A DNA stretch of 15,634 bases from a virus (taxonomy: Duplodnaviria > Heunggongvirae > Uroviricota > Caudoviricetes). The notes under the pieces are model-generated. The model was given only the letters and a program-made list of their open reading frames with translations, was not told the origin of the DNA and did no database searches. The DNA lies in the IMG/VR virus record IMGVR_UViG_2713896900_000009; one strand, written 5' to 3'. Shown one piece after another: positions 10,274 to 12,671 of this stretch. Position numbers and translations under genes: made by a program. The first letter of the stretch is position 1; every line of letters begins with the position of its first letter.

Positions 10274-10474
10274 CTAATCTTTCGGATAGATATCCGGTCT
10301 TAAGTCAGATTTCGTAATTGCACCTGACGTGCATTGCTCAAGTTTTTTAGCCAGCACAAAACTGGCTTTTTTATAGCCATTGAAAACCAGCCGTAAGTAG
10401 CCAGGTGTTGAGCCAACTTTTCCGGCCAACTCGCCCTGCTGTTCTTTGGTTAAAGAGTCCCAATACGCTTTCAT
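10274..10474 (-). CDS. cro: Cro-like repressor, YdaS-type helix-turn-helix (start at internal Met; track ORF extends to 10729)
   Basis: 66-aa translation MKAYWDSLTKEQQGELAGKVGSTPGYLRLVFNG...AKKLEQCTSGAITKSDLRPDIYPKD is helix-turn-helix-like with a C-terminal LRPD motif as in YdaS/Cro-like proteins. GGAGGT lies 9 nt upstream of the ATG at 10472-10474. It is divergent from the CI repressor gene across an operator-bearing 90-bp region. Confidence 0.65.
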   Translation of the reverse strand: MKAYWDSLTKEQQGELAGKVGSTPGYLRLVFNGYKKASFVLAKKLEQCTSGAITKSDLRPDIYPKD

Positions 10475-10480
10475 ACAATA

Positions 10481-10497
10481 TGTACCTCCGGTGTACA
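10481..10497. promoter_or_regulatory. Operator-like inverted repeat TGTAC-N7-GTACA (site 1) in the cI/cro intergenic region
   Basis: Seen directly: tgtacctccggtgtaca, flanked by further symmetry (atatgtac...gtacatat). It sits next to the cro start, with the cro ribosome-binding site in its spacer. Confidence 0.45.
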
Positions 10498-10530
10498 TAT
10501 TACATGATTGAAATGAACCTTCAAGATACT

Positions 10531-10547
10531 TGTACCTTAACGGTACA
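10531..10547. promoter_or_regulatory. Operator-like inverted repeat TGTAC-N7-GTACA (site 2) in the cI/cro intergenic region, overlapping a possible promoter for leaderless cI
   Basis: Seen directly: cttgtaccttaacggtacaag, with perfect 8-bp arms. It lies just upstream of a possible -10 (TTTAAT at 10553-10558) placed about 7 nt before the cI ATG at 10565, which has no Shine-Dalgarno. Confidence 0.45.
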
Positions 10548-10564
10548 AGGGTTTTAATTTCGTT

Positions 10565-11239
10565 ATGAAAACAATCCATGACATCCGGCGGTCTAACGCC
10601 AGAAAACTGAGAGATGGTGTTGGCGGGAATTCTTCCTTTGCCACTATGATTGATCGCGAGCCAACCCAGACCAGCAGGTTTATGGGAGATGGTGCTACTA
10701 AAAATATCGGTGACAGCATGGCACGACACATCGAAAAATGTTTCGACCTACCTGTCGGATGGCTCGATCAAGAACACCAGACAACGAACATCACAAAAAA
10801 ACCTGATGTTTCAATCACTAATAAACAAATCACATTAGTCCCTGTCATATCATGGGTACAGGCCGGAGCATGGAAAGAAGTTGGATATTCTGAGGTTGAT
10901 TTGAGCACAGCAGAAACGTATCCCTGCCCTGTACCCTGTGGGGAAATGACTTATATCTTGCGGGTGATAGGTGATTCAATGATTGATGAGTACCGCCCGG
11001 GAGACATGATTTTTGTCGATCCTGAAGTACCTGCCTGCCACGGTGACGACGTTATTGCATTGATGCACGATACAGGTGAAACCACCTTCAAAAGGTTAAT
11101 AGAAGATGGGACACAGCGTTATCTCAAAGCGTTAAACCCAAACTGGCCTGAGCCTTACATTAAGATCAACGGTAATTGCTCTATAATTGGTACAGTGATT
11201 TTCTCAGGAAAACCAAGAAGATACAAAATCAAAGCCTAA
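10565..11239 (+). CDS. cI: CI-type prophage repressor with C-terminal S24 (LexA-like) autopeptidase domain
   Basis: 224 aa. N-terminal helix-turn-helix-like region. Probable Ala-Gly autocleavage site (VQAGAW), catalytic Ser in the GDSM motif (RVIGDSMIDEYRPGDMIFVDPE) and downstream Lys (TTFKRL). Divergent from cro. Confidence 0.85.
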   Translation: MKTIHDIRRSNARKLRDGVGGNSSFATMIDREPTQTSRFMGDGATKNIGDSMARHIEKCFDLPVGWLDQEHQTTNITKKPDVSITNKQITLVPVISWVQAGAWKEVGYSEVDLSTAETYPCPVPCGEMTYILRVIGDSMIDEYRPGDMIFVDPEVPACHGDDVIALMHDTGETTFKRLIEDGTQRYLKALNPNWPEPYIKINGNCSIIGTVIFSGKPRRYKIKA

Positions 11240-11250
11240 TCAATGTTTAT

Positions 11251-11275
11251 GAACCTGCTTCGGCAGGTTTTTTTA
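11251..11275 (+). terminator. Intrinsic terminator immediately after cI
   Basis: Hairpin gaaCCTGC-ttcg-GCAGGtt followed by a run of seven T (11268-11274), 12 nt after the cI stop. Confidence 0.7.
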
Positions 11276-11278
11276 TAC

Positions 11279-11306
11279 TTGACAATGTACCTTTGAGATA
11301 CATAAT
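11279..11306 (+). promoter_or_regulatory. Strong sigma70-like promoter (TTGACA, 16 nt, CATAAT) with an embedded operator-like TGTAC-N7-aTACA site; candidate PL/OL for the early-left operon
   Basis: Seen directly: -35 TTGACA at 11279-11284 and -10 CATAAT at 11301-11306. The spacer contains ATGTACctttgagATACAT (11285-11303), which matches the operator motif of the cI/cro region, and a second ATGTACC follows at 11304-11310. Confidence 0.5.
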
Positions 11307-11432
11307 GTACCCAAGAGAAACAACGAACAGGCAGGACGCCCACGAAGTAGCCGCCTGGGGCATATGAAGTCCAGGATGATTCGTTGAGTCATGTTGTGCC
11401 ACTAGGCACTCATGTTAAAGCAGGTGTATGAA

Positions 11433-11708
11433 ATGAAAGTCCAGATTTTAAACAATAACTGTGAAGTCGTTTGGTCATACGACATAGCCGCCCCTGTAGA
11501 TCAGAGCGGCGATAGCTGGACCAATGGGAAACATCAGATTATGGCTGGAGTTGTGTTCTCTTTACGCCGTGCTTTGGAACAGGCTGAAGTATTTCCATCA
11601 GACCCTGAATGGAAATGGCCTTTTTCTATTTGTCCAAATTCGGAGAGCACATTTCAGAAAATTGGTCAGAAAGTCGCACTCGAAGAGCATCAGCCAACTG
11701 TTTCCTGA
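11433..11708 (+). CDS. Hypothetical small acidic protein (91 aa from the Met with a ribosome-binding site; track ORF starts at 11412), first ORF after the PL-like promoter
   Basis: AGGTG lies 6 nt upstream of the ATG at 11433. No arginine-rich motif, so it does not look like an N antiterminator. No family recognised. Its 3' end overlaps a convergent ORF. Confidence 0.35.
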   Translation: MKVQILNNNCEVVWSYDIAAPVDQSGDSWTNGKHQIMAGVVFSLRRALEQAEVFPSDPEWKWPFSICPNSESTFQKIGQKVALEEHQPTVS

Positions 11709-11871
11709 TTTTTTCAGGTAACTCGTCGGCATCGCAGAAACAACAACGCTCGATCATGTTGAAAGCCGATTCGTAGAACTGTTTCTGCTGAGTGTCGCTG
11801 AGACAGGAAAAGAGCGACGTTACGATGATTTTATTAATTGCATTATCAAGTTCTTTTTCATCAAAAGTCAT
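11626..11871 (-). CDS. Hypothetical small protein (81 aa) antisense to the early-left direction, convergent with and overlapping 11433..11708
   Basis: Good ribosome-binding site (AAGGAAA about 7 nt upstream of the ATG at 11869-11871). Acidic, with a CCFC motif. No family recognised. Not certain that both overlapping ORFs are real. Confidence 0.35.
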   Translation of the reverse strand: MTFDEKELDNAINKIIVTSLFSCLSDTQQKQFYESAFNMIERCCFCDADELPEKIRKQLADALRVRLSDQFSEMCSPNLDK

Positions 11872-11974
11872 TTGATTTTCCTTTTATGTATACGGGCTTA
11901 AAAGGATACCACCGAGCCTGAAGTGGTGAAAAGACAGGCACATAACAGCTAAGTATTTTCAACCAAAGAGAATC

Positions 11975-12300
11975 CTTAGCGTTGTGGTGAATGCGGCTCA
12001 GCGCACGCGGGTTAAGGTTGAGGCTGACAGTCAACCTTCTGTGGATACCCACCCGTCTGGTGTGCAACCTTCGCCAGGCACCGGGAGGCACCCGGCACCA
12101 CAACTTTATGCTGTGTGTAGTCCTGGCGGTACCAGTTTGTACCCTTGCTTCCGGCTGGTACCGTCCTTTTTACAAAACAGAGAAGAGCATCACCGGACGA
12201 CGGGCTCATAACCCAATCCATCCGGGCGGCTGCCACCGCAGGTGTTCTTCTCTGTTTTGTGGAGAAACTAATCGGCCTTGCAGGGTCGATATGATGAGGA
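11975..12300 (+). other. GC-rich, hairpin-dense, apparently non-coding segment; possible structured RNA or cis-acting antitermination/processing element
   Basis: No convincing protein in any frame; the in-frame 5' extension of the downstream gene is Arg/Cys-rich low-complexity. Contains a perfect 8-bp-stem hairpin AAGGTTGA-ggctgacag-TCAACCTT (12005-12029), a pair of complementary GGTACC-containing segments (12117-12124 and 12149-12156) and near-repeats GGCACCGGGAGG / CACCCGGCACC. Confidence 0.25.
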
Positions 12301-12308
12301 GCAGCAAA

Positions 12309-12671
12309 ATGGCTAGCGAACGCAGTACTGATGTGCAGGCATTTATCGGGGAGCTGGACGGCGGCGTATTTGAAACCAAAATCGGCGCAGTTCTCAGTGA
12401 AGTCGCTTCCGGTGTGATGAACACGAAAACCAAAGGTAAGGTCTCACTCAACCTGGAAATCGAACCATTTGATGAGAACCGTGTGAAAATCAAACACAAA
12501 CTCTCATATGTTCGCCCGACTAACCGCGGGAAAATTTCCGAAGAAGACACCACCGAAACGCCGATGTATGTCAATCGCGGTGGTCGCCTGACTATTCTGC
12601 AGGAAGACCAGGGACAATTACTGACTCTTGCCGGTGAACCTGACGGAAAACTCCGCGCAGCAGGTCATTAA
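12309..12671 (+). CDS. yfdP: YfdP-like hypothetical protein (120 aa from the Met with a ribosome-binding site)
   Basis: GAGGAG lies 8 nt upstream of the ATG at 12309. Same length as, and same position relative to the YfdQ-like gene as, E. coli K-12 CPS-53 yfdP. Identity is from recollection of gene order and size, not verified. Confidence 0.45.
   Translation: MASERSTDVQAFIGELDGGVFETKIGAVLSEVASGVMNTKTKGKVSLNLEIEPFDENRVKIKHKLSYVRPTNRGKISEEDTTETPMYVNRGGRLTILQEDQGQLLTLAGEPDGKLRAAGH

Follow-up and report, generated by a model that had tools for sequence, protein, structure and literature searches.

Are two small open reading frames (ORFs) that converge on each other beside the repressor gene of a prophage both real genes, and if so, what is the meaning of their overlap? 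The pair in question lies in a 15,634 nucleotide (nt) stretch of Caudoviricetes DNA, IMG/VR record IMGVR_UViG_2713896900_000009, which as a whole is referred to here as the window. The plus strand ORF (11433-11708) encodes 91 amino acids (aa), the minus strand ORF (11626-11871) encodes 81 aa, and by the coordinates of the ORF list their 3' ends share 83 nt of coding sequence (11626-11708). The initial annotation of this DNA had suggested a small exclusion or toxin-antitoxin-like module in the rex/sieB position, or that only one of the two ORFs is real. Sequence comparison leads us to conclude that both ORFs are genuine protein-coding genes under purifying selection, each in its own frame, and that the prophage carries them as an antisense-coupled cargo cassette in a hotspot of its early operon. 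On its role we are evenly divided between belief and doubt, and favour the view that it is an excludon-like, 439 bp, two-gene cargo cassette in a slot next to the early-left promoter (PL), with the plus gene on at induction and the minus gene on in the lysogen.

The two ORFs, the 83 nt overlap of their 3' ends and both ribosome binding sites were confirmed from the sequence and the ORF list. The Shine-Dalgarno sequence of the plus gene, AGGTG (11422-11426), is found 6 nt before the ATG at 11433, and that of the minus gene, AAGGAA (11883-11878 on the minus strand), 6 nt before the ATG at 11871-11869. The ORF list gives the plus ORF as 11412..11708 (98 aa, ATG). The upstream ATG at 11412 is the start used for orf33 in the Shigella flexneri phage SfV and is not conserved among the homologues. 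Since every homologue begins with MKVQIL, we place the true start at 11433, in agreement with the initial annotation. A GAGG or AAGGA motif is found at equal spacing before the plus start in all homologues. The window holds 118 ORFs of 40 aa or more. Those of 80-190 aa include many that are located inside or antisense to real genes. As ORFs of 80-100 aa are thus frequent by chance in the window, their existence alone proves nothing, and the case is a comparative one.

The plus gene corresponds to SfV orf33 (WP_021563905.1) and belongs to phrog_3195. The minus gene is annotated neither in SfV nor by RefSeq/PGAP. It is called in other phage records, as it has a PHROG of its own, phrog_3311. Both are families of unknown function. 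At 11859-11891, where the minus gene has its Shine-Dalgarno sequence and start codon, the SfV record places a "putative rho-independent terminator"; our terminator scan gives no support for it.

Relatives of the two proteins were collected by searches of a large protein collection, those of the minus protein by means of a profile, and the contigs encoding them were then fetched. The relatives come from Salmonella, Klebsiella and Yersinia, and share 61-68% identity with the plus protein and 56-64% with the minus protein. We obtained eight distinct cassette sequences from prophages of E. coli, Salmonella, Klebsiella and Yersinia (49-68% aa identity). In each, the two ORFs are open and retain their start codons and Shine-Dalgarno sequences. 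Among the contigs fetched, every locus with one of the genes also carries the other. By tblastn, the distance from start to start is exactly 439 nt in all loci fetched, as in the window (11433 to 11871). Not one insertion or deletion is found between the two starts across the eight cassettes, and the flanks align only with many gaps. Both ORFs are also intact in all 80 IMG/VR copies. A different repressor gene precedes 62 of these 80, as they have no match to the cI gene of the window. Of 5426 complete E. coli genomes, 425 (about 8%) carry the cassette, and it also occurs in prophages of Shigella, Salmonella, Klebsiella and Yersinia.

Codon-position differences and the ratio of non-synonymous to synonymous differences (pN/pS) were analysed on the eight variants, with positions counted from the plus start codon. 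Over cassette nt 1-192 the mean pairwise difference is 0.23, 0.14 and 0.39 at plus codon positions 1, 2 and 3, respectively. The plus frame has a pN/pS of 0.32 over codons 1-64; of the remaining five frames, one has 0.42 and the other four have 0.76-1.6. From about nt 211 onwards the most variable site is position 3 of the minus codons (0.42-0.55), and the pN/pS of the minus frame is 0.28 over codons 1-54. Overall, values in the other frames range from about 0.35 to 1.6, the lowest of them (0.35 and 0.42) being near the selected values. Because each ORF has its own codon-position signature where the other is absent, we regard them as two real genes. Conservation of only one frame had been named beforehand as the outcome that would speak against a pair. 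Both frames are conserved and selected and both ORFs are intact in all copies examined, and the proposal that only one ORF is real is accordingly rejected. The minus gene is missing from the SfV and RefSeq annotations although it is conserved and under selection.

Within the overlap (cassette nt 193-276) pN/pS is 0.96 in the plus frame and 0.55 in the minus frame, so that selection acts mostly on the latter. The plus stop codon shifts among the variants, giving proteins of 91, 93, 122 or 162 aa, and the stretch beyond codon 91 has a pN/pS of 1.2. These values define a functional core of the plus protein of about 68 residues (approximately 11433-11640), and the tail is read as an unconstrained run into the minus gene until a chance stop. 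The 83 nt overlap looks incidental, with no selection for dual coding. It would be a by-product of tight packing, because the plus gene runs into the minus gene before reaching a stop of its own.

The pair is located in a region of exchange between sister phages. The phages SfIV, PhiR29 and Kati and the prophage e14 share the sequence of the window up to 11385 and again from 11903-11909, and the slot between these points corresponds to 11386-11902 of the window. The flanks of e14 are 95% identical over 11200-11385, upstream of ymfJ, and 90% identical from 11903. In the window and in SfV the slot holds the 91 aa plus gene and the 81 aa minus gene with their overlap of 83 nt. The slot of e14 (L013, 5498-6085) encodes YmfJ (102 aa) on the plus strand and YmfI (113 aa) on the minus strand with an overlap of 63 nt. 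That of SfII (L012, 1552-1911) has an unannotated plus ORF of 68 aa and SfII_36 (63 aa) on the minus strand, overlapping by 39 nt. In SfIV (L020, 1435-2047) and Kati (L022, 875-1487) a 68 aa plus ORF, unannotated in SfIV, overlaps a 144 aa minus gene by 29 nt. The slot of PhiR29 has a minus gene of 242 aa as annotated and no convincing plus gene; the only plus ORFs there lie inside the minus strand gene, and no plus partner is annotated. In ST64B no gene is annotated on either strand between the leader and the STnc100-like region, though about 270 nt of unmatched DNA is found there.

The convergent, 3'-overlapping layout thus recurs in four unrelated pairs in one slot (window, e14, SfII and SfIV/Kati). 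We found no significant similarity among the proteins of different cassettes. Homology of the window pair to YmfJ/YmfI or SfII_36 was considered and rejected, as BLASTP gave no significant match (best E value 0.53 against YmfJ/YmfI). The alternative slot genes have no Pfam or PADLOC match. From these alignments the slot is an exchangeable cargo position just downstream of PL. The cargo hotspot suspected in the initial annotation is borne out, as the slot content is swapped in SfII, SfIV, Kati, PhiR29 and e14 and no gene is annotated there in ST64B.

A tblastn match of 35% identity in SfII is not a diverged homologue of the plus gene; it is a recombination remnant of the first approximately 70 nt of the plus ORF. 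The SfII sequence (L012, 1387-1569) aligns to window 11319-11503, that is, the leader and this first part of the plus ORF, with 93.5% identity and with indels. The remnant is joined to a different cassette and marks a recombination scar within the plus gene. For YmfJ of e14 (L013, 5780-6085), relatives of the first approximately 40 residues, with 56-80% identity, are found in Cronobacter, Serratia, Aeromonas, Pectobacterium and Stx phages, and they carry differing C-terminal parts.

The position of the pair relative to the repressor genes was resolved from promoter, operator and terminator predictions. The cI gene (ymfK-like) is followed by an intrinsic terminator on the plus strand (11251-11270), predicted by the scan from an 8 bp stem and a T-run, and SfV has a terminator annotated at the same site. 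This terminator separates the pair from cI transcription. It is followed by a PL-like early-left promoter, TTGACA-16-CATAAT (11279-11306, plus strand), with 11 of 12 consensus matches in the scan. By repeat comparison we found two 17 bp copies of the left operator (OL) at 11286-11322, TGTACCTTTGAGATACA (11286-11302) and TGTACCCAAGAGAAACA (11306-11322). They form direct-repeat families (TGTACC...GTACA) with the three right operators (OR) at 10481-10547, between cro and cI. Because the promoter is overlapped by two OR-type operator copies, we assign the region to OL/PL. The plus gene is the first ORF behind this repressed early-left promoter, and therefore occupies the position of N in phage lambda and not that of rexAB. 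The minus gene is antisense to PL.

The proposed rex/sieB position stood only in part. Genes of the rexAB type are located between cI and OL/PL and are co-transcribed with cI from the maintenance promoter; here, both a terminator and an operator-covered promoter precede the pair. The sieB-like antisense place holds for the minus gene only. The terminator scan found no terminator-like site on either strand over 11271-11907, except for a weak one within the leader. As there is no terminator between the genes, the transcripts of both, if made, must be complementary. The antisense coupling suggested for the pair is in this respect structurally unavoidable.

Excludons are recognised by convergent neighbours with necessarily overlapping transcripts, and the 83 nt overlap without a terminator gives the pair this arrangement. 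The two genes are probably expressed in opposite life-cycle states. In brief, in the lysogen the cI-type repressor would shut PL, leaving the plus gene silent and the minus gene free for expression. Upon SOS induction or infection PL would fire and the plus protein would be made. Converging polymerases and a fully complementary PL transcript would then silence the minus gene, giving mutually exclusive expression according to the logic of excludons and noncontiguous operons. We speculate that the minus protein has a cargo function in the lysogenic phase, for example host modulation or exclusion. The plus protein may be the matching product of the early lytic phase, possibly acting as an inhibitor against self-harm.

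Data on e14 bear on this proposal. The ymfJ gene is induced late in the SOS response (log2 fold change 4.05 to 4.83) and the YmfJ protein has been detected (PMC11002266). The set of convergent excludons compiled for strain MG1655, that is, of pairs with overlapping transcription present in at least 50% of 58 transcriptomes, includes both ymfI-ymfJ and Rac sieB-ydaF (PMC12288877). Expression of the plus gene from PL is supported by proxy, because e14 shares the promoter, operator and leader scaffold with the window and its ymfJ is SOS-induced. The e14 pair resembles the window pair in its slot and scaffold, in its convergent 3' overlap (63 nt) and in a conserved element before the minus gene. 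The proteins are unrelated, and the window pair is always found together, whereas YmfJ and YmfI are not co-distributed.

The closest well-studied parallel is Tha/Ith of the Staphylococcus aureus phage 80alpha. A defence gene expressed in the lysogen and a small overlapping antisense inhibitor gene there form a noncontiguous operon, which is needed to balance immunity and autoimmunity (PMC11087260). In both cases a cargo gene in the lysogeny module of a prophage is overlapped by a small antisense gene. Convergent transcription of Tha/Ith couples the products exclusively to the lysogenic and lytic states, and by analogy the window pair may behave likewise. The polarity is reversed, however. In 80alpha the effector is carried on the transcript of cI, and a constitutive antisense promoter serves the inhibitor, whereas here the plus gene is on the repressed lytic PL and the minus gene is antisense to it. 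There is no relation in sequence or fold either. Tha is an HEPN RNase activated by tail proteins, and the window pair consists of an 81 aa helical and a 91 aa protein, neither of which has an HEPN or other domain in Pfam; the minus model has no fold match. The resemblance is one of architecture only.

Other prophage systems were compared as well. SieB is a larger, membrane-associated protein, and the antidote of BstA is a DNA element. In the case of Rac sieB-ydaF, as in the window, a small promoter-proximal ORF is met by a converging antisense gene of the early-left region (PMC12288877); the minus protein described here differs in being soluble and has no SieB-family Pfam match. The likeness to BstA/aba is conceptual, a prophage function that needs neutralisation upon its own induction (PMC8585504), and BstA is a large protein without homology to the window ORFs. 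The cassette also resembles the morons of lambdoid phages. These are insertions separating genes that a sister phage has next to each other, as the shared flanks and ST64B indicate for the window, and the orientation of the minus gene opposes the operon, as expected of a prophage-expressed gene. A moron, a concept that reportedly stems from Juhala et al. 2000, is defined by a promoter and a terminator of its own. The scans found neither here, and the unit also carries a second gene in the sense of the operon.

A wider generalisation of the favoured explanation is possible, though we consider it unlikely. The slot as a whole could serve specifically for the exchange of paired cassettes that switch with the life cycle. 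Each would consist of a lysogen-expressed antisense effector, anti-phage or host-modulating, and a PL-driven neutraliser, with a shared RNA control element (11903-11941 and the Shine-Dalgarno hairpin described below). The pairs of the window, e14 (ymfI/ymfJ), SfII and SfIV/Kati would then be four unrelated Gram-negative counterparts of Tha/Ith with reversed polarity.

The proteins themselves give little indication of function. Scans of both ORFs against Pfam, NCBIfam and PADLOC gave no significant match, and PHROGs gave only the two families of unknown function. The best matches below threshold were to SspC (E 0.035, marginal) and to four Pfam families (E 0.07-0.11, below the cut-offs). The products of both genes are acidic, soluble proteins with a grand average of hydropathy (GRAVY) of about -0.4 and a maximum 19-residue Kyte-Doolittle value of 0.8-0.9, and neither has a membrane or hydrophobic segment. 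The AlphaFold2 model of the minus protein (predicted local distance difference test, pLDDT, 77.6) is a three-helix protein with helices at residues 5-22, 26-47 and 53-75. A Foldseek comparison of this model with PDB and BFVD returned no significant neighbour, and no significant match came from profile searches of PDB sequences. The model of the plus protein (pLDDT 44) is unusable. A CCxC motif in the minus protein is conserved in close relatives only. It was considered as a metal site and rejected, as it is absent from the distant relatives.

The initial annotation had noted that neither ORF resembles the N antiterminator. We agree, as the plus ORF has no Pfam match to N-type antiterminators at E values up to 1 and an N-terminus, MKVQILNNNCEVVW, that is neither basic nor arginine-rich, with an isoelectric point of 4.95 for the protein. 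Its suggestion of a toxin-antitoxin or exclusion function found no support in PADLOC, Pfam or NCBIfam. No SieB-family assignment can be made from Pfam, PHROG functions or PADLOC, and the hydrophobic segment of such a protein is lacking, with a maximum 19-residue value of 0.80. A type II toxin-antitoxin system is not indicated either, as the genes converge and form no operon, no toxin or antitoxin match was obtained, and the minus model has no fold match in PDB. A type I system, in which an antisense RNA represses a small hydrophobic toxin peptide, would not be expected to have two acidic, soluble products and protein-coding selection on both strands.

Several observations weigh against the reciprocal, excludon-like cassette that we favour. 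The plus tail within the overlap is unconstrained. The scan found no sigma-70 promoter (at least 9 of 12 matches) upstream of the minus gene, and the conserved element present there resembles structured RNA rather than a promoter. A role in defence, as a toxin or as an inhibitor has no backing from homology. A whole-library profile search gave a few distant relatives of the minus protein (26-50% identity). Two of these, on IMG/VR contigs (L104, 3501-3734; L105, 3501-3719), are solo, antisense genes between Q/RusA and holin genes, without a plus partner. The Q-holin region is another classical cargo site, in the late operon, where Stx phages carry stx. IMG/VR scans with two distant relatives gave no matches, and two scans of genome contigs gave no confirmed loci. 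The partners in e14 are not co-distributed either: phages widely share the N-terminal domain of YmfJ, and YmfI has no match in the phage collection.

The solo minus relatives, the unlinked e14 partners and the unconstrained plus tail make two independent, tightly packed genes the main rival. The plus gene would be an ordinary early-left gene and the minus gene a stand-alone antisense moron. Their co-inheritance would reflect physical linkage only, and convergent transcription would have no regulatory meaning beyond keeping the moron separate. The variable position of the plus stop and the PhiR29 minus gene without a convincing plus partner fit this account, which we consider possible and rather improbable. 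It does not readily explain why the pair is never split in eight variants of 50-60% divergence on at least five phage backbones, with no base gained or lost between the starts, or why the convergent overlapping design recurs in four unrelated pairs of one slot. Quite improbable in our judgement is a role of the plus protein as an early regulator in place of N, acting on read-through from PL or on the lysis-lysogeny decision, with the minus gene mainly an antisense brake. The plus gene is first behind PL/OL, at the N position, where Pfam detects no N homologue, and since a terminator hairpin (about 12125-12172) separates the cassette from yfdP, these phages need some read-through device. The plus protein, however, has no arginine-rich motif or nucleic-acid-binding domain in Pfam. 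It cannot be an essential regulator, as ST64B has no annotated gene in the slot and sister phages with the same downstream operon have unrelated genes there. The protein-level selection on the minus ORF argues that it is not only an antisense RNA.

The small size and linkage of the genes, their antisense overlap and their position in a prophage hotspot beside the repressor would suit a classical toxin-antitoxin or abortive-infection pair of type II or type I. We regard this as very unlikely given the lack of significant PADLOC, Pfam or NCBIfam matches, the convergent genes without an operon and the occurrence of minus homologues without a partner; with their low maximum hydropathy, neither protein is a membrane toxin. 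That just one ORF is a gene and the other its antisense shadow is hardly credible. RefSeq/PGAP and SfV annotate only the plus ORF, and the pLDDT of the plus model is just 44, yet each ORF has its own signature outside the overlap, the translation signals of both are kept in all variants, and both are intact in every copy. If expression of the favoured two-gene cassette is reciprocal, it would be a simple Gram-negative example of a prophage tying cargo to lysogeny and shutting it off at induction. It would also offer a working hypothesis for the long-unexplained ymfI and ymfJ of strain K-12, which are located in the same slot. Without reciprocal expression, the pair would be just two more small phage genes.

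Upstream of the minus gene we found a conserved minus strand element, GCCTGTCTTTTCACCACTTCAGGCTCGGTGGTAT (11903-11941), with two interleaved 5 bp stems (11916-11920 with 11935-11939, and 11908-11912 with 11923-11927). It precedes every minus strand cargo gene of the slot, including four unrelated ones, namely the window minus ORF, SfII_36, ymfI of e14 and SfIV_36/Kati. In the alignment of the stems, 96% of the cells are paired, as compared with 21-40% when the partners are slid, and three cells are compensatory in this small sample. This is suggestive of a conserved RNA structure rather than a promoter. A weak TTCACC-N16-TATCCT sequence overlaps the conserved RNA-like structure. It was rejected as the minus gene promoter, as the -10 is lost in SfIV/Kati while the stems are kept, and the hairpin described next begins inside it. 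The scan gave no terminator downstream of the minus gene.

A second, cassette-specific hairpin (TCCTTTTA...TAAAAGGA) is located at 11879-11906 on the minus strand, and its 3' arm is, or abuts, the Shine-Dalgarno sequence AAGGA. It is predicted in nine of ten sequences folded, despite differing sequence, with arms of TCCTT-T/C/G and A/G/C-AAGGA and with unrelated arms in SfII, e14 and Yersinia. The folds of SfIV_36 (/Kati) have no such Shine-Dalgarno hairpin. The element at 11903-11941 and the hairpin could together be a common translational or stability control for the cargo of the slot.

The 5' untranslated region of the plus gene contains a conserved, structured leader RNA (11319-11390, plus strand), which is part of the scaffold and not of the cassette. 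This leader of about 70 nt is found directly downstream of PL/OL with 80-100% identity in 49 phage records. Its hosts belong to at least eight genera, including Escherichia, Salmonella, Yersinia, Klebsiella, Pantoea, Pectobacterium, Citrobacter and Providencia. Compensatory changes are found in 8 of the 16 consensus pairs, and no Rfam family matches. In one Yersinia prophage (L014) the leader sits on the opposite side of the cassette. A relationship to put of HK022 was considered and rejected; a covariance model found nothing in the nun-cI-cro region of HK022, and short-word BLAST gave chance matches only. The leader is single copy in the window, and putL/putR of HK022 are located downstream of PL and PR. 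A role in read-through or antitermination is a guess.

The region 11240-12310 is 99.4% identical to SfV, and near-identical copies are present in hundreds of E. coli chromosomes. The window belongs to an SfV/e14-type lambdoid E. coli prophage. The gene order was obtained by transferring the SfV and RefSeq annotations onto the window. It comprises cro (10274-10474, minus strand), the OR operators (10480-10548), the cI/ymfK-like S24 repressor gene (10565-11239, plus strand), orf33, that is, the plus ORF (11412 or 11433 to 11708), and yfdP (12309-12671, plus strand). Past yfdP follow yfdQ, yfdR, further genes and then xis and int.

The right flank of the cassette, outside it, contains a region resembling the small RNA STnc100/PasD (11959-12174, plus strand), a family described in bioRxiv 10.64898/2026.05.13.724894. 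The match to Rfam RF02076 has an E value of 1.6e-6 but, at 39.9 bits, does not reach the gathering score of 47; the fold has a z score of -3.3. The region ends just before yfdP with the terminator hairpin at approximately 12125-12172, of 13 bp and followed by U5, and PL transcripts crossing the cassette would meet this terminator. PGAP places a "frameshifted hypothetical protein" pseudogene at 11984-12294, overlying the STnc100-like stretch, which is probably spurious.

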